Assembly: GCA_046537875.1 (NCBI GenBank)
Contig: JBKHJZ010000001.1
Location: 16,253-80,252 of the forward strand
DNA: 64,000 nt
Direction: 5' to 3'
From: Acidimicrobiia bacterium
GTDB taxonomy: Bacteria; Actinomycetota; Acidimicrobiia; Acidimicrobiales; VFJN01
Under the pieces are notes generated by a model. The model had not been told where the DNA came from. It did no database searches and saw nothing but the letters and a program-made list of their open reading frames with translations. Each line of letters opens with the position of its first letter. The first letter of the stretch is position 1. A program made the position numbers and the translations under genes. Below, one piece after another: positions 5,827-64,000 of the stretch.

Positions 5827-5876
5827 TCTCAGCACCGGCGTCCTACGCTCCTGCGAGCCGGACCCGGGAGGCACAC

Positions 5877-9179: not shown

Positions 9180-9210
9180 TCCACCGACCCGTTGAACCAG
9201 GAGGACTCCC

Positions 9211-36353: not shown

Positions 36354-36433
36354 GGCTACCGGATGGCCTAGTGGCCATGCAGCGTGGCGTCGGCGCTGGC
36401 TACCGGATCGCCCCGTCGCCGTGCAGCGTGGCG
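36354..36433. repeat. 44-bp-period direct repeat: a degenerate copy of the ligase gene's 3' end placed just beyond its stop codon
   Basis: 36354-36389 and 36398-36433 match at 31 of 36 positions. The second copy encodes the last 11 codons plus the TAG of the ligase (36400..37977). The first copy is intergenic and contains in-frame stops. Confidence 0.6.
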
Positions 36434-45556: not shown

Positions 45557-45583
45557 GTGCCGTCGAGCCAGGAGAAGAGCGCC

Positions 45584-46939: not shown

Positions 46940-47340
46940 GCGGGCCGACCCTCGCCGACGTCGACGCCGGGGTGCGCCGGACGCTCGCCGCCTACACCCA
47001 GGCCCTCGACGACGGCCGCGCCGCCGACGTGGTCGCCACCTTCTGCCCCGACGGTGTGGTCGACATCCCCGGGATGGGCACCCACGAGGGCCACGAGGCC
47101 CTGCTCGCGGCGTACACCGGCTGGGCGCCGCAGCGCCCGCAGCGCCACCTCGTGCTCAACACGCACATCACGCGCTGGGACGAGCACGAGGCCGAGGCGG
47201 TGAGCGACATCGTCCTCCTGCTCCTCGGGGAGAGGGGTTGGAAGGTCCAGCTGGTCGGTCGCTACGAGGACCTGCTCCACCACGACGACGGCACGTGGCG
47301 ATTCCGTCGCCGCCGGGCCACTTTCGTGACGGGCGGGTGA
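46936..47340 (+). CDS. NTF2-fold (SnoaL-like) protein, possibly a beta-subunit-like partner of the Rieske oxygenase
   Basis: GTGA overlap with the Rieske gene (46936-46939). 134 aa. RHLVLNTHI...GRYEDLLHHDDGTWRFRRR pattern of SnoaL_4/NTF2-like proteins. Confidence 0.75.
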   Translation: MSGPTLADVDAGVRRTLAAYTQALDDGRAADVVATFCPDGVVDIPGMGTHEGHEALLAAYTGWAPQRPQRHLVLNTHITRWDEHEAEAVSDIVLLLLGERGWKVQLVGRYEDLLHHDDGTWRFRRRRATFVTGG

Positions 47341-47347
47341 GGAGAGC

Positions 47348-48175
47348 TCAGCCCGTGTGCTCGGGCAGCACCTCGCGCACGAAGGCCTCGACCTGGGCGG
47401 CCCCGGCACCGGGCCACCCACACACCAGGTACCCGTAGCCGGCCTCCTGCCAGCCCTCCAGGTGCTTGGCGGCCTTGTCGAGGTCGTCGAGCGAGAGCGA
47501 CCCGGCTCGCACGATGTCGGAGGGGTCGCGGCCCACCTCGGTCGCCAGCTCGTCGACGCGCCGGTTCGCGTCGGCGAGCGACCTCGGCGTGCCCCATGCG
47601 TGCCACACGTCGGCGTACCGGGCGACCAGCGGCAGGGTCCGGCGCGGGCCGGTGCCGCCGATCCAGATCGGCGGGCGCGGCTGCTGGACCGGCACCGGTC
47701 GGAGCCGGGCGTCTCGGAGTGACACCACCGCGCCGTCGTACGACACCACCTCGCCGGTGAACAGGCGGGTGACGATCTCCAGCGCGTCCTCGAGCAGGTC
47801 GAACCTCTCGCCGAGCGGGGGGAACGGGATGCCCAGCTCGTGGTGCTCCCTGTCGTACCAGGCGGCACCCAGCGACAGCTCGAGCCGGCCGTGCGAGGCG
47901 TGGTCGATGGTGAGCGCCTGCGCGGCGAGCACCGACGGGTGCCGGTAGGTCACGCCGGTGACGAGCAGCCCGAGCCGGATGCGCGACGTCCGGCCGGCCA
48001 GCGCCGCCAGCGTGGTCACGCCCTCGAAGGTCTCCCCCGGGCCCTCGCCGTACATCGGTTGGAAGTGGTCGAACCCCCACGCGCCGTCGAAGCCGAGTTC
48101 CTCGGCGAGCTGCACCCGCCGCACGAGCTCGTCCCAGGACACGCGCTGCTGGGCCACGTCGAGTCCGAAACGCAT
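47348..48175 (-). CDS. LLM-class (luciferase-like) F420-dependent oxidoreductase
   Basis: ATG at 48175 (MRFGLDV...). GFDGAWGFDHF and GRLELSLGAAW motifs. 275 aa. Confidence 0.8.
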   Translation of the reverse strand: MRFGLDVAQQRVSWDELVRRVQLAEELGFDGAWGFDHFQPMYGEGPGETFEGVTTLAALAGRTSRIRLGLLVTGVTYRHPSVLAAQALTIDHASHGRLELSLGAAWYDREHHELGIPFPPLGERFDLLEDALEIVTRLFTGEVVSYDGAVVSLRDARLRPVPVQQPRPPIWIGGTGPRRTLPLVARYADVWHAWGTPRSLADANRRVDELATEVGRDPSDIVRAGSLSLDDLDKAAKHLEGWQEAGYGYLVCGWPGAGAAQVEAFVREVLPEHTG

Positions 48176-48261
48176 GGCCGCAGACCTTGGCACACCGCGC
48201 GGCATCTGTCCCATGGCCGTGCCCGCGTGGAGGTCGACGGCCCGGCACAGGGCCGCACGCG

Positions 48262-49904: not shown

Positions 49905-49920
49905 TCTGACAGTCGGGTCA
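49905..49920. promoter_or_regulatory. Operator-like site TCTGACAGTCGGGTCA (TGAC-N6-GTCA)
   Basis: It lies between the double-TetR stop (which it overlaps) and the start of the SDR-tesB-LLM genes. It matches the site at 52231-52246 at 14 of 16 positions (that site read on the opposite strand). Confidence 0.4.
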
Positions 49921-51228
49921 ATCGCCGGTGCGGGCACCGAAGAAGCCCCGCTGCAGCACGAGCGCCGCCGTGTCGAGCTCCGACGGCGTCCGCTCGCGCC
50001 CGCCGAGGGAGGACAGGAAGGCCAGCAGGACGGCGGCCTCCAGGTCGACGTCCCCGAAGCCGCGCTCGGCCAGCCGGCGGGAGAGCCGGCGGCGGCCCCA
50101 GTCCAGCGTCGGCGCGATCTCGCGCACCGGATCGCCGGCGTTCCGGAGCGCGTCCGACCACACCCGGATCATCGCCGTCGCGCCCGCCTGCGCCTGGTTG
50201 TAGTCGGCCAGCCAGCGCCGCACCGCCGCCCGGCTGGCGGTGCCGTCCTGCACGTCGGGCAGGCGCTGCAGCGTGTCGGCGGCGGCACGCATGGCGTCGA
50301 GCGCCAGCACCTGGGCGACGTGGTCCTTGCCGTGGAAGTACGTGTAGAGCGTCCCGTGCGAGAGCCCGGCCCTCTCGGCGATCGCGTCGATGCGGGTCCC
50401 GTGGTACCCGTGGCGCAGGAACCCGGTGCGGGCGGCGTCCAGCAGGGCAGCCCGGGTGGCGCGGTCGCCGCCGGTGCGCCCGTCGTGCTCCATGCCGGAG
50501 CGGACGAGCGGACCGAACGGCAGCCGCGGCGGTGCGGGAAGGTCGTGCTCGTGGACGTTCACCGCCGGATCGAGGGAGAACAGGGCCCGGTGCACGACGT
50601 CGGTCAGGGCGTCGAGTGTCGCCCCGCGGGGGAACGCGCCGGGCACGGCGCGGCGCAGCATGCCGATGTCCTCGAAGGCCCGGGGAAAGCTCACGAGGAA
50701 CAGGTCGACCGTGCCGTCGACGGCGGCCTGTGCCAGGTCGCTGTTGCGGACCCGGGCGGCGATCGCGCTCACGAAGCGCGACCGGGCCCGGGTGGCGTCC
50801 TCGGCGAAGGTGGCGTCGGTCTCGAGCATGACCGGGAAGGCGTCGAACACCGGCTGGTGCCGCTCGTGGATCTCGCCCCAGCGCTCCACCAGGTCACGCA
50901 GGGATGCCCATCCCTCGGCGTCCGGCGTGACCGGACGCAGCCAGGCCACCGCGGCGTCGAGCTGGAGCGTGAGCTGGGCGGCGAGGTGCCGGAGCAGGTC
51001 GTCCTTGTCGGCGAAGTACTGGTACAGGGCGGCCCGGGAGCAGCCGGCCTCCTTCGCGATCCGCTCGACGCTGCCGTGGTACAGCCCGACATCCCCGAAG
51101 ACCCGCAGGGCGGCGTCGAGGATGCGGTGCCGGGTCCGCTGGCCACGCGCCCCGACGTGGGGGTTGGCGCCGAACGGTGCCCGGCGGACGGCGTCGGCGG
51201 GACCGTTCGCGGCGACGCGGTCGGTCAC
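49918..51228 (-). CDS. Tandem (double) TetR-family regulator: two complete TetR modules in one polypeptide
   Basis: 436 aa from the GTG at 51228, 8 nt after the upstream hydratase stop. First HTH: SVERIAKEAGCSRAALYQYFADKDDLL. Second HTH: RIDAIAERAGLSHGTLYTYFHGKDHV. Each is followed by about 150 aa of ligand-domain-like sequence. Confidence 0.75.
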   Translation of the reverse strand: MTDRVAANGPADAVRRAPFGANPHVGARGQRTRHRILDAALRVFGDVGLYHGSVERIAKEAGCSRAALYQYFADKDDLLRHLAAQLTLQLDAAVAWLRPVTPDAEGWASLRDLVERWGEIHERHQPVFDAFPVMLETDATFAEDATRARSRFVSAIAARVRNSDLAQAAVDGTVDLFLVSFPRAFEDIGMLRRAVPGAFPRGATLDALTDVVHRALFSLDPAVNVHEHDLPAPPRLPFGPLVRSGMEHDGRTGGDRATRAALLDAARTGFLRHGYHGTRIDAIAERAGLSHGTLYTYFHGKDHVAQVLALDAMRAAADTLQRLPDVQDGTASRAAVRRWLADYNQAQAGATAMIRVWSDALRNAGDPVREIAPTLDWGRRRLSRRLAERGFGDVDLEAAVLLAFLSSLGGRERTPSELDTAALVLQRGFFGARTGD

Positions 51229-51236
51229 GGGATCGG

Positions 51237-52145
51237 CTACTCCGCGGCCCGGACCCGGTCCTTGGCGGCCCGCACGATGGGCGGCGCCTGCTTCCAGTTG
51301 GGGATGCCGTCCTCCTCGAGCGCCACGGGGTACTTGTTCTCGTGCACCTGCGCCCAGTGCGAGTGGTTCAGCTCGTGGATCGTGAAGGAGGCGTTCAGGG
51401 CGTTGTAGAAGCCCATCATGTCCTGTGACTGGTTCACCGACTCCTTGATGAGCAGCGCCGGCATGGTGGGCACCTCCGCGATGCGGCGGGCGAAGTCGAT
51501 CGTGCGCTCCTCGAGCTCGTCCTCCGGGAAGAGCTTGCTGACCATGCCGAGCCGGTACGCGTCCTCGGCGGTCAGGGCGTCGCCGGTGAGCAGCAGCTCC
51601 TTGGCCTTCCGGGGGCCGAGCTCCCAGGGGTGGGCGAAGTACTCGACGCCGCACATGCCGAGGCGGGTGCCGACCACGTCCGCGAAGCGGGCCGTGTCGG
51701 CGGCGACGATCAGGTCGCACGCCCACAGGAGCATGAGCCCGGCGGCGTACACGTCGCCGTGGGCCTGACCGATGGTGATCTTGCGCAGGTTCCGCCAGCG
51801 GCGGGTGTTGTCGAAGAAGTAGTGCCACTCCTGGAGCATCAGGCGCTCGGCGCCCTCGCGGGTGCCGCCGTTGGTCCGCCAGCTCGGGTGCTGGTCCGGG
51901 CCGGGCGCCATCTCGGCCAGCGACTGCTTGGAGCCCATGTCGTGCCCCGAGGAGAACATCGGCCCGGTCCCGCCGAGGATGACGACGCGCACCCGGTCGT
52001 CGGCCTCCGCCTCCATGAAGGCGTCGTGCAGGTCGACGAGCAGGCCCCGGTTCTGGGCGTTGCGGGCCTCGGGCCGGTTGAGCATGATCCGGACGATCCG
52101 ACCGTCGTCGATCGGCTCGTAGAGGACGTAGCGGTACTCGGACAT
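51237..52145 (-). CDS. Enoyl-CoA hydratase/isomerase family protein (long form)
   Basis: IVRIMLNRPEARNA and FSSGHDMG motifs. 302 aa. Confidence 0.85.
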   Translation of the reverse strand: MSEYRYVLYEPIDDGRIVRIMLNRPEARNAQNRGLLVDLHDAFMEAEADDRVRVVILGGTGPMFSSGHDMGSKQSLAEMAPGPDQHPSWRTNGGTREGAERLMLQEWHYFFDNTRRWRNLRKITIGQAHGDVYAAGLMLLWACDLIVAADTARFADVVGTRLGMCGVEYFAHPWELGPRKAKELLLTGDALTAEDAYRLGMVSKLFPEDELEERTIDFARRIAEVPTMPALLIKESVNQSQDMMGFYNALNASFTIHELNHSHWAQVHENKYPVALEEDGIPNWKQAPPIVRAAKDRVRAAE

Positions 52146-52246: not shown

Positions 52247-52277
52247 TTTGGGCGGGCGTCGTCTACCATCAGGCGTC

Positions 52278-52583
52278 ATGCGCCTGCGACCCGGGATGAA
52301 GCTGTACAGCACCGTCTGCGACGCGCAGGTCGTCGTCGTGAAGGCGCCGGCCGACGACGTCGCGGTCGCCTGCGGCGGCGCACCCATGGTGCCGGACGAC
52401 CCGGGCGGCACGTCCGGCACGCCGGATGCCTCGCTCGGCGAGGGCCCGGCCATCGGCAAGCGCTACGCCGGCGACGAGCTGGGCATCGAGCTGCTGTGCA
52501 GCCGGGCCGGCAGGGGTGCGCTCACGGTGAACGGCGAGCCGCTCCTGCTGAAGGGCGCCAAGCCGCTGCCCTCCTCGGACTGA
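52278..52583 (+). CDS. Hypothetical small protein (about 100 aa) with an internally repeated Cys-containing motif
   Basis: Coding-like composition, ending 14 nt before the ligase start. VCDAQVVVVKAP...ACGGAPM and ELLCSRAGRGALTVNGEPL look like two related half-motifs. An alternative start is at 52296. Confidence 0.5.
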   Translation: MRLRPGMKLYSTVCDAQVVVVKAPADDVAVACGGAPMVPDDPGGTSGTPDASLGEGPAIGKRYAGDELGIELLCSRAGRGALTVNGEPLLLKGAKPLPSSD

Positions 52584-54086: not shown

Positions 54087-55358
54087 CTAGAAGACGCCGA
54101 TCCCGGCGGCCTCGTTGCGTGCCTTCCACTCGGCGCGGGTCATGCGGGTGGTGTCCACGTCGGTGGCCCGGGACCGCAGCGCGCCGACCGTGGCGTCCTC
54201 CCTGGCGGTGTGCCGGAACGGGTCCCAGTCGAAGAACCGGCAGGCGTTCTCCCACGTGATCCTGTGGATCTCGTCGTCGGTGCAGCCGGCGGCCTGGAGC
54301 TCGTTCCAGGAGAACTCGGGCGACTCCGGCCACGTCGTGTCGGTGTGCGGGTAGTCGCACTCCCAGGCGATGATGTCCATGCCGATGCGGTGGCGCAGCT
54401 CGAGCCCGGACGGGTCGGTGATGTAGCACGCCAGGAAGTGGTCGCGGAAGACCTCCGACGGGAGCTTGCCGCCGAACTCGTCGCCGCCGTGCAGCCAGGT
54501 CTGGTTGGTCCAGTGGCGGTCGATGCGGTCGAGGTAGAAGGGCACCCAGCCGATGCCCCCCTCCGACAGCGCCACCCGGAGGTCCGGGAACTTCTGGAAC
54601 ACGCCGCCGAACAGCAGGTCCTGGGCGGTGATGGCCGCGATCTGGGTGGCCAGCACCATGAGGTGGTCGATCGGCGCCTCGGCGGGCCGGCGGATGACCT
54701 CGAACCCGGCGCCGATGTGCAGCGAGAGCACCATGTTCTCGTCGCAGATCGCCTTCAGCATCGGGTCCCAGTGGCCGGACAGGAAGCTCGGCAGGCCGTA
54801 CACGTGGGGCGTCTCGAGGAAGCTGATCGACCGGCAGCCCTTCCGGCCGATGCGGTGGATCTCCTCGGCGGCGAGCTCCGGGTCCCAGTTCGGCACCATG
54901 CCGAGCGGGATGAAGCGCCCGGGGTACTCGGCGCACCACTCGTCGAGGACCCAGTCGTTGTAGCCCCGGAGCATGACGTGGGCGATCTCCTTGTCCTCGC
55001 CCTCGTTGAAGGTGCGGGCGCTGTAGCCGGCCATGGTGGGGAAGTTCATCGACGCGAGCACGCCGTTGGCGTCCATGTCCCGCACGCGCTGGTGCACGTC
55101 GAAGCAGCCGGGCCGCAGCTCCTGGTACGAGCCGGGGTTGAAGCCCCACTCCTCGCGGGGCCAGCCCACGGTGGCGGCCATGCCGAACGGGGTGGAGGTT
55201 GCGGAGCCCTGGAAGTGCCACTCGTCGACGCCCTTGTCGTTGCGCACGACCTTCGGCATGTCGGCCTTCCACTTCTCCGGCACGTGGTTCTCGAACAGGT
55301 TCGGCGGCTCGATCATGTGGTCGTCGATGCTGACCAGGATCATGTCGTCCATCTGCAT
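54087..55358 (-). CDS. Amidohydrolase-2 (PF04909-like) family protein, paralog C
   Basis: VSIDDHMIEP N-terminal motif and WECDYPHTDT C-terminal motif. It starts 16 nt after the P450 stop. Confidence 0.8.
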   Translation of the reverse strand: MQMDDMILVSIDDHMIEPPNLFENHVPEKWKADMPKVVRNDKGVDEWHFQGSATSTPFGMAATVGWPREEWGFNPGSYQELRPGCFDVHQRVRDMDANGVLASMNFPTMAGYSARTFNEGEDKEIAHVMLRGYNDWVLDEWCAEYPGRFIPLGMVPNWDPELAAEEIHRIGRKGCRSISFLETPHVYGLPSFLSGHWDPMLKAICDENMVLSLHIGAGFEVIRRPAEAPIDHLMVLATQIAAITAQDLLFGGVFQKFPDLRVALSEGGIGWVPFYLDRIDRHWTNQTWLHGGDEFGGKLPSEVFRDHFLACYITDPSGLELRHRIGMDIIAWECDYPHTDTTWPESPEFSWNELQAAGCTDDEIHRITWENACRFFDWDPFRHTAREDATVGALRSRATDVDTTRMTRAEWKARNEAAGIGVF

Positions 55359-55374: not shown

Positions 55375-56577
55375 TCAGGACGTGAAGACGGGGAGGCGTT
55401 CCCAACCCCGCACGGTCGATGTGCGCGCCTGCTTGGCGTTGTCCCAGTCGACCTCCCAGTCGGGCCAGCGCTCGAGCACCTCCTCGAGCGCGACCCGGCC
55501 CTCGAGGCGGGCCAGCGCGGCGCCGAGGCAGAAGTGGACCCCGTAGCCGAAGCTCAGGTGGTGGTCGACGTGCCGGTGGATGTCGAAGCTGTCCCCGTCG
55601 GGGAACCTGCGGTCGTCCCGGTTCGCCGAGCCGTTGATCAGCAACATGGCGCTGCCGGCGGGCACGACCTCGCCGTGGAGCTCCACGTCGGTGGTCACGT
55701 AGCGGGCCTGCACGGGTGACGGCGCCTCGAAGCGCAGGATCTCCTCGATGGCCTGGGGGATGAGGTCCGGCTCCTCGGCCAGCTCCCGACGCTGGTCGGG
55801 GTGCTCGGCCAGCACCTTGCCCGTCCAGCCGATCAGCCGCGTGGTGGTCTCGTTGCCGGCGCCGGCCAGGAGGTTGATGTAGTTGAGGACCTCGTCCCGG
55901 GTGAGGCGCCGGAGCGTGCCCGACTCGTCCTCGAACTCCGCCTGGAGGAGCTGGGTCATGAGGTCGTCGGAGGGGTTCTGCGCCCGCCAGTCGATGTAGT
56001 CGGCGAACACCTCGTGCTGGCCGCGGCCGGCCAGCATCTCGCCGGTGGGCATCTCGGCCTCCTCCAGGCGCAGGCCCTCGTCGATGCGGTCGCGGATCGC
56101 CTCCTGGTCGGCCTCGGGGATGCCGAGGAGCATGCCGATGGTGCGCATCGGCATCTGGGCGCCCAGGTCGCGGATGAAGTCGAACCCGCCGCTTCCGACC
56201 AGCGGATCGAGGCTTCCGACGGTGAACTCCCGCACCTTGTCCTCGATGGCGTTCATCCGCCGGGGCGTGAAGACCCGGGACAGGACGCTGCGGTGCCGGT
56301 CGTGGCCGGGCGGGTCCTCGAAGATGAACGTGCCCGGGGGCATCTCGACGTCGGCCTTGATCAGCTCGAGCAGCGTGCCCCTGGCCGAGCTGTAGGTCTT
56401 CCAGTCCTTCAGGCCCGCTTCGACGTCGTCCCACCGGGTCAGCGCCCAGAAGTCGTACCGCCCGTTCCGGTACAGCGGCGCCTCGTCGCGCATGCGCCGC
56501 CAGAGCGGGTACGGGTCGGTGTCGATCTCGAAGTCGTAGGGGTCGTAGTAGATCCCCGGATCGCTGGTGACGGTCAC
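55375..56577 (-). CDS. Cytochrome P450 (paralog 2)
   Basis: A GTG at 56577 gives an N-terminus (V)TVTSDPGIYYDPYDFEI colinear with paralog 1 (MTIANATDVYYDPYDVEI). AGNETT, EEILRFE and FGYGVHFCLGAALAR motifs. Confidence 0.9.
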   Translation of the reverse strand: MTVTSDPGIYYDPYDFEIDTDPYPLWRRMRDEAPLYRNGRYDFWALTRWDDVEAGLKDWKTYSSARGTLLELIKADVEMPPGTFIFEDPPGHDRHRSVLSRVFTPRRMNAIEDKVREFTVGSLDPLVGSGGFDFIRDLGAQMPMRTIGMLLGIPEADQEAIRDRIDEGLRLEEAEMPTGEMLAGRGQHEVFADYIDWRAQNPSDDLMTQLLQAEFEDESGTLRRLTRDEVLNYINLLAGAGNETTTRLIGWTGKVLAEHPDQRRELAEEPDLIPQAIEEILRFEAPSPVQARYVTTDVELHGEVVPAGSAMLLINGSANRDDRRFPDGDSFDIHRHVDHHLSFGYGVHFCLGAALARLEGRVALEEVLERWPDWEVDWDNAKQARTSTVRGWERLPVFTS

Positions 56578-56892
56578 GATCCGGCCAGCCCGTCGATCGC
56601 CCGCGTGCGGAGCGGGTTCGGGCGCTGGGCCCGGTCGGTGGGCCACGCCGTGTCGACGAGCGGCGCGTCGACGGGCTCCGGGGTCGTGCCCTGGACGGTC
56701 GGTGTGTCGGTCACCCGGTTCCCCCCTCTGGTCCCTTCAGCGGCCGCGGTCGGCTCGCGACGTGACCGTACAACAGCCGCGCCCGTGCGTGCTGACCGAA
56801 CCGTTAGAAAGCGTTACAGTCCGCGCCATGCCTCGCACGTGGGCCCCTCGGCGCCGGGTCGAGGACGTCCACGCAGTCCTGAGGGGGGACCG

Positions 56893-58110
56893 ATGACCGC
56901 CATCCTGAACGGCGTCCGCATCCTCGAGGTCGCCGAGCACACCTTCGTGCCGGCCGCCTCGGCAGTCCTGGCCGACCTCGGTGCCGAGGTGGTCAAGATC
57001 GAGCACGTCGAGCGCGGCGACGCCATGCGCGGCCTCGCGTCCACCGGGGTGGCCGCCGTGCCCATGGATGTCCACGCGCTGCTCGAGCACTCGAACCGGG
57101 GGAAGAAGAGCCTGGCGCTCGACCTCACCGATCCCGAGGGGCTCGAGATCCTCGGCAAGCTGGCGGCCACGTCCGACGTGTTCCTCACCAACAAGCTGCC
57201 CAGCATCCGGACAAAGCTGAAGATCGACGTGCCCGACATCCGGGCGCACAACCCGGACATCGTCTACGTCCGGGGCACGGGCCAGGGCGAGCGCGGTCCC
57301 GACGCCGACAAGGGCTCCTACGACTCGCTGGCGTTCTGGGCCCGGGCGGGTGTCGCCATCGGCGCCAGGCGACCCGAGTACGACCTGCTGCCCGTGCCGC
57401 CGGCGCCCGGCTTCGGCGACTCCATCGGCGCCATGACCATCGCCGGGGGGATCATGGGGGCGCTGTTCCACCGCGAGCGCACCGGCGAGGCCACCGAGGT
57501 CGATGTCTCGCTCCTCGGCACCGGCCTCTGGTCGATGGGCCAGGCCATGGCCCTGTCGCTCGTGCTCGGCATGCCCTGGCAGGCGCCGCCGGCCGACCGC
57601 ATGGGCGGGAACCCGCTCACCGGCAACTACACGACCAAGGACGGGCGGCACGTCGCCCTCACCTGCCTCCAGGCGGCGAAGTACTGGCCGACGCTGTGCG
57701 ACGCCATCGGCCGACCCGACCTCAGGGACGACCCCCGGTTCGCCGACCAGGCGTCCCTTCTGGAGCACAACGAGGAGGCCACCGCGCTCCTCACCGAGGC
57801 CTTCGCCTCCGCCACGGCCGACGAGTGGCGGGCGCGGCTGGCCGACTTCGACGGCCAGTGGACCATGGTCCAGGACACCCTCGAGGCGGCCGAGGACCCG
57901 CAGACGGTGGCCAACGGCTACCTGCAGGAGTGCGAGACCGCCGCCGGGAAGCCGTTCAAGCTCGTCGCGGTGCCGGTCCAGTACGACGGCCAACCGGCCC
58001 GGCCCGCCCGTGCCCCCGAGTTCAACGAGCACGGCGATGCGATCCTCGCCGAGCTGGGCCTCGACTGGGACGCGATCGTCGACCTCAAGGTCCGCGGCAT
58101 CACCGCCTGA
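56893..58110 (+). CDS. Type III (CaiB/BaiF-family) CoA-transferase
   Basis: ATG follows GAGGGGGG. GVRILEVAEHTFVPAASAVLADLGAEVVKIE N-terminal signature, and a GDSIG region with the conserved Asp. Confidence 0.9.
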   Translation: MTAILNGVRILEVAEHTFVPAASAVLADLGAEVVKIEHVERGDAMRGLASTGVAAVPMDVHALLEHSNRGKKSLALDLTDPEGLEILGKLAATSDVFLTNKLPSIRTKLKIDVPDIRAHNPDIVYVRGTGQGERGPDADKGSYDSLAFWARAGVAIGARRPEYDLLPVPPAPGFGDSIGAMTIAGGIMGALFHRERTGEATEVDVSLLGTGLWSMGQAMALSLVLGMPWQAPPADRMGGNPLTGNYTTKDGRHVALTCLQAAKYWPTLCDAIGRPDLRDDPRFADQASLLEHNEEATALLTEAFASATADEWRARLADFDGQWTMVQDTLEAAEDPQTVANGYLQECETAAGKPFKLVAVPVQYDGQPARPARAPEFNEHGDAILAELGLDWDAIVDLKVRGITA

Positions 58111-58136
58111 GCCCACAACACCACAGGAGACCCACC

Positions 58137-58967
58137 ATGTCGCTGTTCGATGCCTTCCGGTTCGACGGCAAGCGCGTGCTCGTCGTCGGCGGCGCCACCG
58201 GGATGGGCGCCGCCGCCGCCGAGCTGGCGCTCGACGCCGGGGCCGAGGTCGTGGTCATGGACCACGCCGACGTCACCCTGGACGGGGTGAAGGCCGTCAA
58301 GCTCAACCTGGCCGAGCGGGGCTCGATCGACGCCGCGCTCGGCGATGTCGGCGGCCCCGTCCACGCCCTCCTCGCCTGCGCCGGCGTCGCCGACGGCACG
58401 CCGGGACTCGAGCGCATCAACTTCATCGGCCACCGCTACCTGATCGAGACGATGCTCGAGGCCGGCAACCTGCCGCGCGGCTCGGCCATCGGCTTCATCT
58501 CCTCGGCGGCCGGGCTCGGCTGGGAGTCGAACCTGGAGAAGATCACGGAGGTGCTGGCCATCTCCGACTGGGACGAGGCCGTCGCCTGGTGCCAGGAGAA
58601 CGGCTACGCCGACTACTTCCACACCAAGCAGATCATCTGCGCCTACGTGGCCAGCAGGGCGCACGAGCTGATCAAGCAGGGGGTCCGCATCAACGCCATC
58701 TGCCCCGGGCCCACGGAGACGCCGCTGGCCAGGGCCAACGCCGAGATGTGGCTCGGCTTCGGTGCCGACTGGCGTGAGGAGGTGGGCATCGACGCCTCGA
58801 CGCCGCTCGAGCAGGCCTACCCGCTGCTGTTCCTGTGCAGCGAGGCCGCCCGGGCGATCAACGGCATCACGCTGATCACCGACGAGGGCTACATGATGGC
58901 CGGCCTCACCAACGCCTACGAGCCGGCCCGCGACGCCGCCCGGTTCCTCATGGGTCGCCTGTCCTGA
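58137..58967 (+). CDS. SDR-family oxidoreductase (atypical, coniferyl-alcohol / 3-alpha-HSD-like subgroup)
   Basis: ATG follows AGGAGA. VVGGATGMG glycine motif, a YFHTKQ putative Tyr/Lys, and ICPGPTETPL. Confidence 0.75.
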   Translation: MSLFDAFRFDGKRVLVVGGATGMGAAAAELALDAGAEVVVMDHADVTLDGVKAVKLNLAERGSIDAALGDVGGPVHALLACAGVADGTPGLERINFIGHRYLIETMLEAGNLPRGSAIGFISSAAGLGWESNLEKITEVLAISDWDEAVAWCQENGYADYFHTKQIICAYVASRAHELIKQGVRINAICPGPTETPLARANAEMWLGFGADWREEVGIDASTPLEQAYPLLFLCSEAARAINGITLITDEGYMMAGLTNAYEPARDAARFLMGRLS

Positions 58968-58970
58968 TCG

Positions 58971-60590
58971 ATGCGTCTGCTCCCGCAACTGACCCCGGAG
59001 AACGAGTGGTTCTGGACCTCGGGCGCCGACGGGCGCCTGCGCGTCCAGGGCTGCCGTGACTGCTCGACGCTCGTGCACCCACCCGCTCCGGTCTGCCCGG
59101 CCTGCCGGAGCAGCAGCCGGGAGCCGACGCCGGTCTCCGGGCGGGCGACCGTGGCGGGCTACACGGTCAACTCGCACCCGTGGATCCCCGGGTTCGACCC
59201 GCCATACGTCATCGCGGTCGTGGCGCTGGAGGAATCGCCCGACGTCCGGCTGACCACGAACATCGTCGGCTGCGACCCCGACGACGTGCACATCGGCCAG
59301 GAGGTCGCGGTGCGGTTCGAGGAGCACGACGGCGTGTTCCTCCCGCTGTTCGAGCCGACCGGGGCGACCCACGAGAACCCGGTTCCCGAGCCGAAGCTGC
59401 CGGCGCCCCGGCCCGCGGCGAGCACCGACCGGTTCGAGCACCGGGCCGTGCTCTCGGGCATCGGCCGCTCGGCGATCGGCCGCCGGCTCATGGTCGACCC
59501 GCTGTCGCTCACCGTCGACGCCTGCCTCGCGGCCATCGACGACGCCGGCCTGCGGCCCGACGACATCGACGGCCTGTCGACCTACCCGGGCGCGGTGGGG
59601 ATGGGCATGAGCGAGGGCGGCGTCACCGCCGTGGAGGAGGCGCTGCGCCTCCATCCCACGTGGATCAACGGCGGCATGGACATCCCCGGGCCGGGCGGCG
59701 CGGTGATGAATGCCATGCTCGCCGTGTCGGCGGGCCTGTGCCGCCACGTCCTGTGCTTCCGGACGGTGTGGGAGACCACCTTCGCTGCCCGCGGCGGCAC
59801 GGGTGCCACGGGCGGCGGCGGAGGGCCGGACTGGATGCAGTGGCGCCTGCCGTTCGGCGCGGCGTCGGCGGCGACCTGGATCGGCATGAACGCCAACCAG
59901 TACCTGCACCGCTACGGCGCCACCCGGGAGCTGTTCGGGCGCATCGCCGTGAACGCCCGCGCCAACGCCGGCCGGAACCCGCTGGCGATCTACCGCGAGC
60001 CGATGACGATGGACGACTACTTCGGCGCCCGGCCCATCACGAGCCCCTTCGGGCTCTACGACTGCGACGTGCCCTGCGATGCGTCGATCGCCGTCATCGT
60101 GTCCGCGGCCGACGTCGCCGACGACCTGCCGCAGCCGGCGGTGCACGTCGAGGCGGTCGGCACGCAGGTCCTCGAGCGGATCTCGTGGGACCAGGGCACG
60201 CTCACCCACGAACCGCAGGTTCTCGGCCAGTCCGCCCACCTCTGGACCCGCACCGACCTCCGCCCGGACGACGTCGACGTGGCCCTGCTCTACGACGGCT
60301 TCACCTTCAACTGCGTGAGCTGGCTCGAGGGCCTCGGCTTCTGCGGCCTCGGCGAGGCGAAGGACTTCGTCGGCGACGGCAGCCGCATCGCCCTCGACGG
60401 TGAGCTGCCGCTGAACCCCCACGGGGGGCAGCTGTCCGAGGGTCGCACCCACGGCTTCGGGTTCGTCCACGAGGCCGTGCTCCAGCTGCGCCACGCGGCC
60501 GGGGAGCGCCAGGTGGCCGACGCGTCCACCGCCGTGGTGGCCACCGGCGGTGGCACGCCCTCCGGCGTGATGCTGCTGCGGAGCGCGTGA
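58971..60590 (+). CDS. Fusion protein: N-terminal DUF35 (zinc-ribbon + OB-fold) and C-terminal SCP-x/Ltp-type thiolase-like domain lacking the thiolase catalytic residues
   Basis: CRDCSTLVHPPAPVCPAC zinc ribbon plus OB-fold (~aa 1-125). The thiolase-like part has NPHGGQLSEGRTHGFG, but GPGG sits where the nucleophile C(A/S)SG is expected, and ATGGG where the C-terminal CxGGG is expected. Confidence 0.8.
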   Translation: MRLLPQLTPENEWFWTSGADGRLRVQGCRDCSTLVHPPAPVCPACRSSSREPTPVSGRATVAGYTVNSHPWIPGFDPPYVIAVVALEESPDVRLTTNIVGCDPDDVHIGQEVAVRFEEHDGVFLPLFEPTGATHENPVPEPKLPAPRPAASTDRFEHRAVLSGIGRSAIGRRLMVDPLSLTVDACLAAIDDAGLRPDDIDGLSTYPGAVGMGMSEGGVTAVEEALRLHPTWINGGMDIPGPGGAVMNAMLAVSAGLCRHVLCFRTVWETTFAARGGTGATGGGGGPDWMQWRLPFGAASAATWIGMNANQYLHRYGATRELFGRIAVNARANAGRNPLAIYREPMTMDDYFGARPITSPFGLYDCDVPCDASIAVIVSAADVADDLPQPAVHVEAVGTQVLERISWDQGTLTHEPQVLGQSAHLWTRTDLRPDDVDVALLYDGFTFNCVSWLEGLGFCGLGEAKDFVGDGSRIALDGELPLNPHGGQLSEGRTHGFGFVHEAVLQLRHAAGERQVADASTAVVATGGGTPSGVMLLRSA

Positions 60591-60648
60591 CCGGTCGTCG
60601 TCGACCCGGCGGGGCGGGGGATCGCACATCACGAAGGGGGGAGCTCAG

Positions 60649-62106
60649 GTGGACGACCAGACCACCATCGTCCAGCGCATCGCGACGCTGGCCCGGGAAC
60701 AGGCCGACACGGTGGCGTTCACGCACGTCGGCGAGGACGGCGCCGAGCGCACGCTCCGCTGGGCCGAGCTCGACCGGTGGTCCGGCCAGCTCGCCGGCGA
60801 GCTCGCCGCGCGTGGCCTGGGGCACGGGCGGCGACTGGCCGTCGGGCTGCGCAACTCGCCGGAGCTCGTGTGTGCCGCCGTGGCCGCGTGGAAGCTGGGC
60901 GCCACCCCCGTCCCCGTCCGCTGGGACCTGCCGGCGTGGGAGCTGGAGCGGGTGCTCGACGTGATCGACCCGGCGGTCGCGCTGCGCGACGAGGACCTGT
61001 GCTGGATCGCCGCGACCACCGAGCGACCGGTGCCCGAGCTGCCCGACGTGCTCGCACCCCACCTGCAGGGCATCTGCAGCAGCGGCTCGACCGGCACGCC
61101 GAAGATCATCCTCAGCTCCGTGCCGGCGGTGTTCCACCCGATCTACTCGACGCCGATGGCGGAGCAGTGGCGGCCGGTCCCGAGGCCGCAGACCGTGCTC
61201 GTCCTGGCGCCGATGTACCACATCAACGCCTTCGCCACGCTGCAGAACATGCTGTCCGGCGACCGGCTCGTCGTCCTCGAGAGGTTCGACGCCGCACGCG
61301 CGGTGGACGCCATCGAGCGGCACCGGGCGACGACGTTCACCGCGACGCCGACCATGCTCCAGCGCATCGCCGACCTCCCCGGCCTCCACGCCCGGGACCT
61401 CAGCAGCCTGGTGTGGGTGCTGCAGGGCGCCGCACCGATGCCGCCGTCGCTCGCCCGGCGGTGGATCGAGCTGATCGGCGCGGACAAGCTGTACATGGCC
61501 TACGGGATGACCGAGGCCATCGGCATCACGGCGCTCGACGGCGAGGAGTGGCTGGCCCACGAGGGGAGCGTCGGGCGTGGGCAGCGCGGCACCGAGATCC
61601 GGGTGCTCGGCGAGGACGGGGCCGATCTCCCACCTGGTGACGTGGGCGAGATCTTCATGCGCGCCCCGGCCTACGGCGGCTCCACCTACCTCGGCGAGGC
61701 ACCGCGGCTGCGGACCACGGACGACGGCTTCGCGAGCGTCGGCGACATGGGCCATCTCGACGACGACGGCTACCTGTACGTCGTCGACCGGCGCGTCGAT
61801 CTCATCGTCACCGGCGGTGCCAACGTCTTCCCCGCCGAGGTCGAGGCCGCGCTGATCGACCACCCGAAGGCCGCGGACGTGGTCGTCATCGGCCTGCGCG
61901 ACCCCGAGTGGGGGCGGCGCGTGCACGCGATCATCGAGCCCGCCACGCGGGACGACCCGCCCACGCTCGACGAGGTGCGCGCCTACGCGAGGTCCCGCCT
62001 CGCCGCCTACAAGATCCCGAAGAGCGTCGAGATCGTCGAGGCGATGCCGCGCAGCGCCGCCACCAAGGTCAACCGCGGACGGCTGGTCGCAGAGCGCGGC
62101 GGCTGA
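60649..62106 (+). CDS. AMP-dependent acyl-CoA ligase (short form)
   Basis: GTG follows GGGGGGA. SSGSTGTPK, YGMTE, VGDMG and ATKVNR motifs. Confidence 0.85.
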   Translation: MDDQTTIVQRIATLAREQADTVAFTHVGEDGAERTLRWAELDRWSGQLAGELAARGLGHGRRLAVGLRNSPELVCAAVAAWKLGATPVPVRWDLPAWELERVLDVIDPAVALRDEDLCWIAATTERPVPELPDVLAPHLQGICSSGSTGTPKIILSSVPAVFHPIYSTPMAEQWRPVPRPQTVLVLAPMYHINAFATLQNMLSGDRLVVLERFDAARAVDAIERHRATTFTATPTMLQRIADLPGLHARDLSSLVWVLQGAAPMPPSLARRWIELIGADKLYMAYGMTEAIGITALDGEEWLAHEGSVGRGQRGTEIRVLGEDGADLPPGDVGEIFMRAPAYGGSTYLGEAPRLRTTDDGFASVGDMGHLDDDGYLYVVDRRVDLIVTGGANVFPAEVEAALIDHPKAADVVVIGLRDPEWGRRVHAIIEPATRDDPPTLDEVRAYARSRLAAYKIPKSVEIVEAMPRSAATKVNRGRLVAERGG

Positions 62107-62144
62107 CGGCCCCTCGGCTGACGGGCCCGGTTCGAGCTCGCTCT

Positions 62145-62354
62145 GTCAGACCGGACGGAGCAGCATCTCCTGGGCGACCGAGACGATGATGCGGCCGTCG
62201 GGGTCGCGGACCACGCCGCGCAGCGTCCCCCGGCGTTCACCCACGACGGTGTGCGAGCCACCAACACCCCGTCGTCCCGCTCGTCGAGCGTGAGGTGCTC
62301 GACGGTCTCGGCGATGGCGGTGGCGACGTCGCGCTCGCGGTCGGCCGCCGTCAC
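62145..62354 (-). pseudogene. Remnant of a hotdog-fold thioesterase gene (5'-truncated and frameshifted)
   Basis: Reading from 62354, one frame gives ...AIAETVEHLTLDERDDGVLVA. After about 62260 the coding-like frame shifts and gives HTVVGERRGTLRGVVRDPDGRIIVSVAQEMLLRPV*, which resembles a thioesterase C-terminus. The ORF-track continuation into the ligase gene is Ser/Arg-rich junk. Confidence 0.35.
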
Positions 62355-62382
62355 GACGAGGTCAGTCGTCCGTCGGGCGCGA

Positions 62383-62413
62383 CGGGGCGCCCGGCCGGTC
62401 GACCGGGCGCCCC
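62383..62413. terminator. Strong hairpin downstream of the L,D-transpeptidase gene
   Basis: Perfect 11-bp stem, GGGGCGCCCGG (62383-62393) with CCGGGCGCCCC (62403-62413), and a 9-nt loop. It lies about 40 nt after the stop at 62455. Confidence 0.5.
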
Positions 62414-62454
62414 CTCGGGTGCGTGGTCACGATCTCCCACCACCCTGCATCTCA

Positions 62455-63204
62455 TCACGTGATCGTGACCGGTGTCCCGAGATTGACGATCTCGGCCAGG
62501 CGGGCGGCGATGTCGTTGGGCACCCGGATGCAGCCGTGGGACACGGCCCGGCCGATGCTGGCGGGGTCGTTGGTGCCGTGGATGCCCACCTGGCCGTCGC
62601 CGCCGGCGAACTCGGTGAGCGACTCGGAGTGGGCCGAGAGCCCGTAGGCGAACTGCCCGTAGGCGCCGCCCGGGTCGCCGGTGTCGAGCTTGTCGACCAC
62701 GTAGTACCGGCCGGTGGGGGTGGGGTTGGTGTCGGTGCCGACCGCGACCGGGGTGGTGAGCACCTCGTCGCCCCCGGCATAGAGGGTCAGGGTCCGGGCC
62801 GCGAGGTCGATCTCGATGGCCTCGTCGAGCTCGCGGAGCTCGACCGCCGCCCGGGGGATCCACCCCGTGGAGCCGTTGGGCCGCACCGGCAGCGCCACCT
62901 GCAGCCACTCGCCGTCGGTGTCCACCACCTGCAGGGCCCGGGGCGAGCCGAACTCGGTGGTCGCCGGCAACACGCTGGCCGGGGTGGCATCACCGGGGGA
63001 TGCGTAGACCTCCAGGTCGCCGTGGGTGCGGGCGACGACGCTGCCCTGCTCGCCGGCGGGCCCGGAGGCCCGGGCGGTGGAGGACGTCGCCGTGGTCTCG
63101 GGCGCCGGGGAGGACTCCTCGGCGGCGGGCCCGCCGCCGCAGCCGGTCACGAGGACCACGGCCACGGCGGCGAGCGTTGCGGTGATCCGCCGCACGACCA
63201 TCAC
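62455..63204 (-). CDS. L,D-transpeptidase lipoprotein (YkuD domain)
   Basis: Signal peptide with lipobox LVTGC. Catalytic motif SHGCIRV. The start overlaps the upstream stop (GTGATG at 63199-63204). Confidence 0.85.
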   Translation of the reverse strand: MMVVRRITATLAAVAVVLVTGCGGGPAAEESSPAPETTATSSTARASGPAGEQGSVVARTHGDLEVYASPGDATPASVLPATTEFGSPRALQVVDTDGEWLQVALPVRPNGSTGWIPRAAVELRELDEAIEIDLAARTLTLYAGGDEVLTTPVAVGTDTNPTPTGRYYVVDKLDTGDPGGAYGQFAYGLSAHSESLTEFAGGDGQVGIHGTNDPASIGRAVSHGCIRVPNDIAARLAEIVNLGTPVTIT

Positions 63205-63632
63205 CCGGTGAAGTTCGGGGTGGCGAGCACGGGCGGGTCGACGGTCGCCTCGGGCACGGGCTCGGGCTCGGGATCCGGCTCCGGCTCTTCCTCGCCGCCG
63301 CCGGGCTCGCCGTCGCAGTCCTCCGGCGGGTCCTCACCCTCGCACGGGTCCTCGGGCTCGCAGTCCTCCGGCGGGTCCTCGCTCTCGCAGGGATCCTCCG
63401 GCACCGGGCACGGCACGATCACGTCGTCGCACGGCTGGGGGATGCCGACCTCGTCGCCGGGGAACGTCGGGCCGGGGGCGGCGGTCGGGGACTCGACCAG
63501 TGGCCCCTCCACGATCGCCGACGCCCCGGCAGCCGCGGGGCTCACCAGGCCCATCGCCGCGACGGCGCCGACGAGCAGGATGTTCCGCAGGCTCGCACTG
63601 CGGCCGGCTCGCTGCTGCGTGTGCTGGTTCAT
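63201..63632 (-). CDS. Secreted acidic Cys/Pro/Glu/Asp-repeat protein (function unknown)
   Basis: ATG at 63632 follows AGGAGG. N-terminal signal-like LLVGAVAAMGLVSPAAAGASA. The mature part is dominated by EDPCE(S/G)EDPPEDC repeats and a PEPDPEPEP tail. Confidence 0.6.
   Translation of the reverse strand: MNQHTQQRAGRSASLRNILLVGAVAAMGLVSPAAAGASAIVEGPLVESPTAAPGPTFPGDEVGIPQPCDDVIVPCPVPEDPCESEDPPEDCEPEDPCEGEDPPEDCDGEPGGGEEEPEPDPEPEPVPEATVDPPVLATPNFTG
63313..63402. repeat. 2 x 45-bp in-frame tandem repeat inside the acidic protein gene
   Basis: 63313-63357 and 63358-63402 match at 40 of 45 positions. Each unit encodes a 15-aa EDPCExEDPPEDCxx unit. Confidence 0.8.
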
Positions 63633-63762
63633 CGGTTCCTCCTGTGGTCCACCGCCCGGGCTCTCCGGCCGGTGCCACCCGTCCTGACCGACCACCCCCA
63701 CCCCTCTTACGCGGTGCGGGGAGATTTCTTCGGCGGCGCACCGTCGGCGAGAATCGGCCACC

Positions 63763-64000
63763 GTGAAGGTGCACGAGCTCACCACGACCGACGGGTTCAT
63801 CGTCTTCGACCTCGACGCGGCCACCACGTCGGTCGGCGTGGTGCGGGCCGCACCCAAGGTCCTCCGCGACGGCGCCGTCATGCTGGCCAGGTCGGTCACG
63901 TACGCGTTCGCCTCGTTCGGGGTCGGCGGCCACGGCGGTGCATCGGCGGCGGTGAACGCGGCGCCCGACGCCCGCGACGACGCCCTCAAGGCGTTCGTGA
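63763..64000 (+). CDS. Possible Glu/Leu/Phe/Val-dehydrogenase-like protein; N-terminal fragment running off the window
   Basis: Open frame from the GTG at 63763 to the window end. LARSVTYAFASFGVGGHGGASAAV aligns loosely with the LARxMTxKxAxxxxxxGGxKxxI region of this family, but the Lys is absent. Confidence 0.35.
   Translation, partial: MKVHELTTTDGFIVFDLDAATTSVGVVRAAPKVLRDGAVMLARSVTYAFASFGVGGHGGASAAVNAAPDARDDALKAFV

Follow-up and report, generated by a model that had tools for sequence, protein, structure and literature searches.

What reaction can be expected of a thiolase-like protein in which none of the thiolase catalytic residues is left? The question is raised by an open reading frame (ORF) of a 64,000-nucleotide stretch of contig JBKHJZ010000001.1 from an Acidimicrobiia bacterium (the window, in whose coordinates all positions are given). 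The ORF, at 58971-60590, encodes a 539-residue protein in which a DUF35 module, made up of a zinc ribbon and an OB-fold, precedes a domain of the SCP2/Ltp type (Table 1). A reading of the DNA letters alone (the original prediction) had taken the protein for a self-contained C-C lyase acting on a bulky 3-hydroxy- or 3-oxoacyl coenzyme A (CoA) ester. The analysis reported here points to a non-thiolytic C-C lyase, most likely a retro-aldolase acting on a hindered beta-hydroxyacyl-CoA with its obligatory DUF35 partner in cis and not provided by a gene nearby, an assignment in which confidence is evenly divided. The lyase remains the best available reading, with the aldolases Ltp2 and Sal as nearest relatives and a tyrosine, Y441, kept, whereas membership of the Ltp2 family itself fails, as shown below.

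The architecture is that of a DUF35 module joined to an Ltp/SCPx-like enzyme, as originally proposed. The Pfam families zf-ChsH2, OB_ChsH2_C and Thiolase_C_1 (the last on residues 425-531, 1.6e-30) each score over their gathering scores, and in a PDB sequence search residues 159-536 match Ltp2 (6ok1_A, E=1.4e-59) while residues 5-131 match ChsH2(DUF35) (6ok1_B, E=2.3e-22). Thus, one polypeptide corresponds to both chains of a single solved complex. The zinc site has the spacing C28-x2-C31-x10-C42-x2-C45, with all four cysteines invariant in 84 homologues, which is the canonical C4 spacing given for TcChsH2DUF35 in the 2025 Sal paper. The Pfam and PDB matches therefore place in cis a DUF35 module (PF12172 plus PF01796, a C-x2-C-x10-C-x2-C ribbon followed by an OB fold) with its C4 site intact. 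An AlphaFold2 (AF2) model of the protein was built from the 84 homologues and has a predicted local distance difference test score (pLDDT) of 75 and a predicted template modelling score (pTM) of 0.77, the latter suggesting that the DUF35 module may take up a defined arrangement relative to the enzyme domain. When Foldseek was run with this model, 6OK1 came first (TM 0.82), Sal (9MYR) came second (0.75) and all true thiolases ranked lower; the thiolase superfamily fold was recovered with a Foldseek probability of 1.00 and TM values of 0.7-0.82 against many thiolase-fold chains. The ORF begins with ATG on the + strand and has a GC content at third codon positions of 0.96, typical for coding sequence at the window GC of 73%; GC is 70-77% throughout the window, which fits an actinobacterium. 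The gene has no paralogue in the window, where tblastn returns it alone. Another ORF, of 525 residues (36400-37977), was considered as a paralogue and rejected as an AMP-ligase.

The catalytic positions were compared in HMMER and L-INS-i alignments with those of Ltp2, Sal and 4U4E and of the genuine thiolases 7YVY (motifs AACASGG, VHDAFT and ARGHPVG) and 6ESQ (AACASGS, VHDCFA and AAGHALG). All thiolase catalytic residues had been claimed to be lost, and this proved right: the thiolase positions are occupied by I238, P239 or G240, by R492 and by Y441-D-G443-F. At the nucleophile the original prediction had equated GPGG with C(A/S)SG. The loss of the cysteine stands, but the register was about two residues out, as the cysteines of 7yvy and 6esq fall on I238 or P239 and L-INS-i places the CAS of thiolases over I238-P239-G240. 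The register remains uncertain by about two residues, and no cysteine occurs anywhere in residues 234-246 (GGMDIPGPGGAVM), so the loss of the nucleophile is robust despite that doubt. The replacement of GHPxG by GRTHG was borne out, with R492 aligned to the GHP histidine of 7yvy and 6esq as well as to Tyr344 of Ltp2 and Gln352 of Sal. The replacement of a terminal CxGGG by ATGGG is literally true but carries little information because bona fide SCP2 and archaeal thiolases also lack that cysteine (NIGGTG in 7yvy) and hold their acid/base cysteine in the HDCF motif. The telling change is the one from HDCF to YDGF, which the original prediction had missed even though its core claim was correct. 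Thus, the elbow cysteine, the GHP histidine and the Cys/His of HDCF are all absent, and in these alignments no thiolase catalytic residue is seen to survive.

Two aldolases provide the reference for what can take the place of these residues. In TcLtp2, Tyr294 (in Y-D-H-F) is the base, His296 forms the oxyanion hole and Tyr344 is the acid, whereas CtSal pairs Tyr302 with Cys304 (in Y-D-C-Y), Cys304 being the acid, and has Gln352 at the Tyr344 position (2025 Sal paper). Both enzymes have glycine at the position of the thiolase nucleophilic cysteine, and in both the Y-D-x-F tyrosine is the base by experiment (2025 Sal paper). The protein studied here keeps this base as Y441. It was also to be searched for the tyrosine pair of Ltp2, and only the base was found: the second tyrosine is Arg492 and the oxyanion histidine is Gly443. 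The Tyr-Cys pair of Sal is likewise incomplete, with the tyrosine present and Gly443 at the cysteine position. With Arg492 and Gly443 present, the mechanism cannot simply be carried over from Ltp2. A loop specific to the clade (DCDVPCD, against DCCQESD in Ltp2) contributes D366 as a candidate acid/base residue.

So strong a conservation speaks for an active enzyme. In the 84 homologues, which are 75-90% identical and come from several actinobacterial orders, Y441, D442, G443, F444, R492, H494, H484 and E490 are invariant, as are D364, C365, D366, C369, D370 and the zinc cysteines, while residues around 131-153 are variable and Pro-rich, as expected for a linker. The YDGF/R/DCDxPxD signature is held down to about 37% identity. 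Together, the invariant residues and the depth of the signature point to catalysis and not to decay.

The protein belongs to a large clade of its own. When representatives clustered at 50% identity were searched exhaustively, 12,240 matched, 772 of them below 1e-30, and three groups were drawn from active-site column typing and a rough neighbour-joining tree, both made without DitF, IpfD, Ltp3, Ltp4 and the Mycobacterium tuberculosis paralogues. The first group is large, has Y-D-G-F, G-R-x-H-G and D-C-D-x-P-x-D, and holds the present protein, the fused members P0121, P0122 and P0125, together with many unfused proteins that are about 390 residues long. The second is the Ltp2 clade (YD[H/A/C]F plus Tyr), with the fused members P0150 and P0209, and the third contains Sal, 4U4E and the true thiolases. 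One unfused member of the YDGF-type clade, P0141, carries YDGM and G-K-L-Q-G as its other two motifs and C-A-S where thiolases have their nucleophile, and could be an intermediate between the thiolase and lyase states, or a reversion. The NCBIfam model for Ltp2-type proteins, PRK07855 (cut-off 469 bits), gives the present protein 262 bits and eight other YDGF/Arg members 245-288 bits, whereas the Ltp2-type controls P0247 (647 bits) and P0150 (fused, 493 bits) pass; neither the protein nor those eight members reach any NCBIfam cut-off. Identity is 35% to Ltp2, 29% to Sal and 28% to 7YVY. The protein is therefore placed outside the Ltp2 family, Ltp2-like in architecture and probably in function. 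The clade would represent a third active-site configuration among thiolase-fold, DUF35-dependent C-C lyases, beside Ltp2 and Sal.

Comparison with characterized systems sharpens this picture. Ltp2-ChsH2(DUF35), the retro-aldolase of the steroid C17 side chain (6OK1 of Thermomonospora curvata; Rv3540c/Rv3542c of M. tuberculosis), is the best sequence match for both halves and the best fold match. Both systems are actinobacterial and set in CoA-ester catabolism, and both combine a Cys-less SCP2-like fold and the Y-D-x-F tyrosine with a DUF35 partner of the C4 zinc-ribbon/OB kind. They differ in the residues already named and in the position of DUF35, which is N-terminal on the enzyme itself here but C-terminal on a MaoC hydratase in ChsH2, and no MaoC hydratase or steroid-ring genes lie near the present gene. 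Sal-Shy(DUF35), the bile-acid C5 side-chain aldolase of Comamonas testosteroni (9MYR), also lacks the nucleophilic cysteine, depends on DUF35 and uses a tyrosine base. It differs in having a cysteine acid in YDCY and glutamine at the GHP position, where the present protein has glycine and arginine, and the zinc site of Shy is C3H1 and not C4. Genetic evidence pairs ChsH4, a DUF35 protein that stands alone, with the actinobacterial Sal relative Atf1 in the HBC operon of M. neoaurum, which also has a TetR regulator; thus, a DUF35 protein without a MaoC domain can serve an aldolase. The 'reductase' of that operon was considered as a parallel to the dehydrogenase gene next to the present one and was rejected, as ChsE6 is an acyl-CoA dehydrogenase (ACAD). 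In the ibuprofen pathway (Sphingomonas Ibu-2/Rhizorhabdus wittichii), the genetically required pair IpfDE (DUF35 plus SCPx-like) is held to form isobutylcatechol by splitting propionyl-CoA off a CoA ester, a deacylating C-C cleavage of a bulky, ring-bearing acyl-CoA; unlike the present gene, it is proteobacterial and split. The benzoylsuccinyl-CoA thiolase BbsAB (7PXP) and the archaeal complex of acetoacetyl-CoA thiolase with HMG-CoA synthase and DUF35 (6ESQ) also combine DUF35 with an SCP2-type thiolase-fold subunit, but these are true thiolases that carry CAS, HD(C/A)F and GHP/GHA motifs, none of them present here, and the BbsB model of NCBIfam scores 70 bits against a cut-off of 750. The SCP2-thiolase-like protein of Trypanosoma brucei, TbSLP (5AB4-7), has no nucleophilic cysteine and is a proposed aldolase; it differs in its YDCF motif, its lack of a DUF35 partner and an identity of about 20%.

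That scaffold and Cys-less enzyme form one chain had been claimed at the outset and is well founded, since the top 120 matches among 5.8 billion proteins are full length (at least 98% coverage), 75-90% identical and built of the same three domains. The suspicion that the fusion is an assembly or frameshift artefact can be rejected on the same grounds, and the idea that it is unusual was not upheld. A scan of one genome per species confirmed at least 591 fused loci, mostly in Acidimicrobiia and others in Frankia/Parafrankia and Mycobacterium (the closest among the loci listed being a syntenic Acidimicrobiaceae metagenome-assembled genome, 88%), and fusions are also found in the Ltp2-type clade (P0150 and P0209). 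The fusion is a common Rosetta-stone event and no rarity. In unfused relatives a stand-alone DUF35 gene lies directly upstream and overlaps the enzyme gene by 4 nt. The order at locus L081 is dehydrogenase, DUF35 (134 residues) and enzyme; L083 likewise has a split pair. Plasmid pDK3 of Rhodococcus sp. DK17 encodes, in PST05_RS39580/85, an 'OB-fold domain-containing protein' (8983-9396) and a 'thiolase family protein' (9393-10577) that are 49% and 46% identical to the DUF35 and enzyme halves, respectively. Compared with the DK17 pair, the fused protein has about 22 extra residues joining its two parts, a linker absent from split pairs. Gene order in these relatives shows the origin of the fusion from an adjacent DUF35 and enzyme gene pair. 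RefSeq labels the fused versions plainly as 'OB-fold domain-containing protein', and literature searches for DUF35-thiolase fusions returned only fusions of other kinds or cloning kits. A JGI metagenome contig (L088) carries a fused YDGF/Arg protein and a second, split DUF35/Thiolase_C_1 pair (20296-21644) with an alpha/beta ACAD pair beside it, so that one genome holds both forms.

The gene also keeps characteristic company. An 'Amidohydrolase_2' protein encoded at 54087-55358 matches DitZ (8UYR) from end to end, with 49.6% identity (E=5e-145), and PtmU3 at 6e-29, and has DDH at residue 12 and DYPHTD at residue 335. These motifs are the marks of amidohydrolase-related dinuclear oxygenases (AROs), which are C-H hydroxylases recognized by an N-terminal D-x-H and a C-terminal D-x-P-H-x-D/E; the authors who defined the motifs report that the latter is not found in those hydrolases and decarboxylases of this Pfam family that have been characterized. 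The diiron enzyme DitZ hydroxylates diterpenoids and has been studied with dehydroabietic acid. Both motifs occur in all three Amidohydro_2 proteins of the window (13869-15089, +; 39733-40977, -; 54087-55358, -), none of which reaches an NCBIfam family. Of four amidohydrolase_2 neighbours checked at loci L085 and L088, two show both motifs, as do the 'amidohydrolase family proteins' encoded beside the gene, whether fused or split, on plasmids of Rhodococcus. The three window proteins, and many in related loci, are thus probably dinuclear-metal C-H hydroxylases or oxygenases and not hydrolases. On plasmids, 16 of the 20 ARO records listed fall among the top 25 DUF35/thiolase-like records of 72,556 (naive hypergeometric P = 2e-35, for records that are not phylogenetically independent). 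The genes are adjacent in Massilia putida (ARO, then enzyme), Rhodococcus sp. BH4 and R. rhodochrous GD02 (ARO, fused gene KUM34_RS25620, CoA-transferase), and the Massilia cluster shares orthologues of the second ARO of the window, an ACAD (63%), an APH-like kinase and an enoyl-CoA hydratase (ECH). A 277-residue 'MaoC N-terminal domain' protein of Massilia, considered as a hidden DUF35 carrier, has no similarity to the DUF35 of the present protein. The conserved core thus has three members, the DUF35/thiolase-like enzyme, a family III CoA-transferase and a hydroxylase of the ARO type, and this genomic partnership with AROs appears to be unreported.

The wider neighbourhood is consistent with CoA-ester catabolism. 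The gene is the third of an apparent + strand operon (CoA-transferase, short-chain dehydrogenase/reductase (SDR), fused gene, acyl-CoA ligase) with no terminator-like site between the four genes, and the TGA stop of the SDR gene lies 3 nt before the ATG of the fused gene. A promoter and terminator scan of 56500-62500 gave nothing informative. The Pfam inventory of the 53 genes called in the window includes three alpha/beta-type ACAD pairs, six AMP-ligases, two crotonases, two cytochrome P450s, a Rieske dioxygenase, a Baeyer-Villiger monooxygenase (BVMO) and an aldehyde dehydrogenase. No MaoC domain was found among them, as the original prediction had stated, and the only hydratase candidates are two crotonase-type ECHs, at 51237-52145, nearer to the gene, and at 15173-15943. 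In a comparison of 80 related loci, orthologues of the neighbours recur around the gene in shuffled order: the ECH at 71-80% identity (21 of 80), the upstream SDR at 56-85% (directly adjacent in about 17 of 80, and upstream also in L081 and L088), amidohydrolase_2 at about 75%, the P450 at 64-81% and the CoA-transferase at about 70%. On Rhodococcus plasmids, CoA-transferase orthologues of 47-48% identity lie beside the gene, be it fused or split, and Pseudofrankia and Acidimicrobiales contexts contain the same Pfam families and never MaoC. A 47%-identical fused relative adjoins an Mce lipid-uptake operon. The CoA-transferase, two ligases, crotonase, ACAD pairs and P450s, with the Mce operon of the relative, suggest the catabolism of bulky substrates as CoA esters. 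The term 'self-contained' was thus an overstatement: the enzyme travels with a conserved set of SDR, CoA-transferase, P450, crotonase and DitZ-like hydroxylase, which probably supplies the hydroxylated CoA ester in place of a MaoC hydratase.

A retro-aldol mechanism can be outlined from homology and conservation. Y441 would take the proton from the beta-hydroxyl, after which the C-alpha/C-beta bond would break. Gly443 and Arg492, which co-vary, take the places of His296 and Tyr344; Arg492 could fill the space left by Gly443 and steady the thioester enolate or oxyanion, the task of His296 in Ltp2, and C-alpha would be reprotonated by water or by the clade-specific Asp366, where Ltp2 uses Tyr344 and Sal uses Cys304. 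The DUF35 domain is expected to shape the acyl-binding cleft, as in 6OK1 and 9MYR. The CoA ester may be made by the CoA-transferase or a ligase, and its beta-hydroxyl could come from the crotonase ECH or directly from the DitZ-like ARO or the P450, which would explain the absence of MaoC. The predicted products are a short acyl-CoA and an aldehyde or ketone, and the adjacent SDR might oxidize or reduce the product or ready the substrate, which is probably an acid with a bulky alicyclic, terpenoid or steroid-like skeleton. The lyase reading draws on the DUF35 match, the 6OK1-like halves and the Foldseek order that puts Ltp2 and Sal over thiolases. It is favored further by the loss of the cysteine, the GHP histidine and HDCF with Y441 kept, by split relatives whose DUF35 gene overlaps the enzyme gene, by the association with ARO hydroxylases and by the genetic and biochemical precedents of Ltp2, Sal, Atf1-ChsH4 and IpfDE, all pairs of DUF35 and thiolase-like proteins with non-thiolytic or deacylating cleavage.

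Several observations weigh against this reading. The acid residues of both known aldolase types (Tyr344 and Cys304) are missing, which makes retro-aldol chemistry an extrapolation, and the AF2 model is of moderate confidence overall and poor in the active-site loops, its low-confidence loops being residues 354-368, 401-418 and 485-489. Searches for a curated family, a solved structure, a characterized member or literature on the YDGF/Arg clade found none. The closest homologues of characterized DitZ (84-91%; R. zopfii and Nocardia) have no Cys-less thiolase-like gene nearby, so that the coupling of hydroxylase and lyase holds for the ARO family in general only. These neighbourhoods, the 49.6% identity and the absence of dit-specific NCBIfam names for the Rieske dioxygenase, P450, BVMO and luciferase-like monooxygenase of the window leave the idea of dehydroabietate (dit) catabolism via DitZ without support. 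The main counter-evidence is the translationally coupled SDR gene directly upstream, which, as in BbsCD-BbsAB and ordinary beta-oxidation, would imply a 3-oxoacyl-CoA substrate and retro-Claisen cleavage.

An enzyme of that type, in which CoA or water attacks the beta-keto carbon of an SDR-made 3-oxoacyl-CoA with no covalent intermediate and Arg492 steadies the enolate of acetyl- or propionyl-CoA, is unlikely, and so is a decarboxylase of a malonyl-type (beta-carboxy) acyl-CoA, the two being judged together. The bbs operon for benzylsuccinate beta-oxidation encodes a family III CoA-transferase, an SDR, a crotonase, an ACAD and DUF35 plus thiolase. The present genes mirror this set, with weak matches to BbsA and BbsB, the position of the SDR gene and the order SDR, DUF35 and enzyme are conserved, and the nearby ligase and CoA-transferase could re-activate an acid product. 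The SDR, however, is closest to the coniferyl-alcohol/3alpha-hydroxysteroid dehydrogenase (3alpha-HSD) type and not to 3-hydroxyacyl-CoA dehydrogenases, so it may act on a carbonyl product or a ring hydroxyl instead. Non-covalent thiolysis is not known from any thiolase-fold enzyme. Moreover, the kept tyrosine is the base of aldolases, and the nearest relatives by both sequence and fold are aldolases. Decarboxylation has some precedent in the slow decarboxylation of malonyl-CoA by the Cys-less TbSLP (2025 Sal paper), an activity that is weak; family III CoA-transferases often take dicarboxylates, and the arginine could bind a free carboxylate.

Ordinary CoA-dependent thiolysis with a non-canonical cysteine nucleophile is most improbable. 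It could appeal to the thiolase fold, to the nearby SDR and crotonase and to the invariant C365, C369 and C458, but no cysteine lies within 6 residues on either side of the nucleophile position in any alignment, and the GHP histidine and HDCF cysteine are arginine and glycine. Ltp2, 4U4E and 6ESQ share C365 (DC motif) and C458 (GFC motif), and Sal shares C458, which makes these two cysteines features of the fold and not nucleophiles specific to the clade; C369 is V, I or C in different clade members. Furthermore, the window holds a canonical thiolase gene at another place (5814-7055), so that thiolysis does not depend on the protein. The loss of every thiolase catalytic residue might instead suggest an inert scaffold, or a lipid- or acyl-CoA-binding pseudo-enzyme that chaperones partner enzymes. 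DUF35 proteins act as scaffolds in the archaeal thiolase/HMG-CoA synthase and PhlABC complexes (2025 Sal paper), and steroid hydratases are known to have inert partner domains. Such a role is very unlikely in view of the 75-90% identity across Acidimicrobiia, Frankia and Mycobacterium and of an active-site-like set of polar pocket residues (Y441, D442, R492, H494, D364, D366 and D370) that are invariant or clade-wide; the fused DUF35 would already be the scaffold, which would leave the conservation of the large domain without a reason. The retro-aldolase remains the preferred reading.

A more far-reaching idea is put forward tentatively and is held to be rather unlikely: the YDGF/Arg clade may provide a third, independent catalytic solution for C-C cleavage on the thiolase fold, a tyrosine base with an arginine-stabilized enolate, within a bypass of beta-oxidation in which it acts together with AROs and a family III CoA-transferase and in which the substrate is hydroxylated and then cleaved by retro-aldol reaction. 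In such a bypass the C-H hydroxylase would put the beta-hydroxyl on directly. The substrates would be acids with a fully substituted alpha- or beta-carbon, such as resin-acid, terpenoid or other alicyclic carboxylates, on which acyl-CoA dehydrogenase, hydratase and 3-hydroxyacyl-CoA dehydrogenase could not act. PtmU3 reportedly puts a hydroxyl on a carbon that is beta to a CoA thioester and has a quaternary carbon as its neighbour, and the bypass is proposed by analogy.

Table 1. Features of the fused gene and of its neighbours, in window coordinates, with the evidence for each
Feature	Position	Strand	Evidence
Whole ORF, 539 aa: DUF35, linker, thiolase-like domain	58971..60590	+	ORF calling, Pfam, PDB sequence search
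Zinc ribbon, residues 15-48, C28/C31/C42/C45	59013..59114	+	Pfam zf-ChsH2, E=1.3e-9
DUF35 OB-fold, residues 54-117	59130..59321	+	Pfam OB_ChsH2_C, 8.4e-18
Linker, Pro-rich, poorly conserved, about residues 131-153	59361..59429	+	Variable alignment columns, lower pLDDT
SCP2/Ltp-type thiolase-like domain, residues 155-539	59433..60587	+	6ok1_A match, Foldseek
Thiolase nucleophile position, I238-P-G-P-G-G243, no Cys	59682..59699	+	Alignment to 7yvy and 6esq; L-INS-i
Clade-specific loop D364-C-D366-V-P-C-D370 (Ltp2: DCCQESD)	60060..60080	+	Active-site typing, alignment
Y441-D-G443-F motif (HDCF in thiolase, YDHF in Ltp2, YDCY in Sal)	60291..60302	+	Alignments; invariant
G-R492-T-H494-G motif	60441..60455	+	Alignments; invariant
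Family III CoA-transferase, first gene of apparent operon	56893..58110	+	Pfam; nearest PDB entry Rv3272
SDR, YxxxK intact, directly upstream of fused gene	58137..58967	+	Closest NCBIfam family coniferyl-alcohol/3alpha-HSD type
Acyl-CoA ligase, downstream of fused gene	60649..62106	+	Best NCBIfam match BaiB bile-acid-CoA ligase, sub-cut-off
Cytochrome P450, immediately upstream of ARO	55375..56577	-	Pfam
'Amidohydrolase_2', DitZ-like dinuclear-metal oxygenase (ARO)	54087..55358	-	8UYR match, motifs
Crotonase-type enoyl-CoA hydratase	51237..52145	-	NCBIfam PRK08290, above cut-off
Double-TetR regulator, 436 aa, two TetR_N domains in one chain, adjoins crotonase	49918..51228	-	Pfam

Other genes of the window deserve mention in their own right. 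Between the crotonase and ARO genes lies a further acyl-CoA ligase gene (52598), and 15 nt upstream of it is a 111-residue ORF (52248-52583, +; third-position GC 0.92) with no Pfam match; the short gap suggests that the two could be co-translated. Adjacent ACAD genes occur as pairs at 7069-9179, 20684-22863 and 29872-32138, and in every pair Pfam leaves part of the usual three-domain set, mostly the middle domain, unmatched in one of the two proteins; they resemble the alpha2beta2 ACADs (ChsE/FadE type) for bulky steroid-like acyl-CoAs. An ACAD and an APH-like phosphotransferase are encoded side by side (23017-24318 and 24360-25415, +), a pair that is conserved, at 63% and 39% identity, on a plasmid of Massilia putida and is also found in Acidimicrobiales and Pseudofrankia loci near the present family. 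A Rieske dioxygenase alpha subunit and a SnoaL-like, weakly beta-subunit-like protein (45557-47340, +) lie beside a Baeyer-Villiger-type flavin monooxygenase (43883-45478, -) whose best, sub-threshold NCBIfam match is PtlE of the pentalenolactone pathway, which hints at terpenoid or alicyclic ketone chemistry in this region. A luciferase-like monooxygenase (47348-48214, -) scores above the NCBIfam cut-off of the F420-dependent family TIGR03560 (Rv1855c), suggesting that the host uses coenzyme F420. An ORF at 63201-63989 (-), without a Pfam match, adjoins an L,D-transpeptidase gene (62455-63204) and ends in an acidic, Cys-containing, Pro/Glu/Asp-rich low-complexity repeat (...CPVPEDPCESEDPPEDCEPEDPCEGEDPPEDCDGEP...).

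Ltp2 and Sal are the two thiolase-fold aldolases dissected so far, and each has remade the thiolase active site in a different way. The protein described here represents a much larger clade, with hundreds of 50%-identity clusters and the many fused loci counted above, that keeps only the tyrosine common to both and replaces the rest with an invariant Gly/Arg pair. Characterization of this clade would show to what extent the thiolase scaffold can be turned to C-C cleavage. As a natural single-chain combination of DUF35 and enzyme, the protein should be simpler to express than Ltp2 and Sal, which are heteromeric complexes, at a time when aldolases are sought for steroid and terpenoid synthons. 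It also offers a handle on a conserved catabolic set (ARO, P450, CoA-transferase, SDR and crotonase) that is abundant in the poorly studied soil Acidimicrobiia. The proposed bypass, if it exists, would have a wide distribution that takes in soil Acidimicrobiia, Frankia, Rhodococcus and some Proteobacteria.

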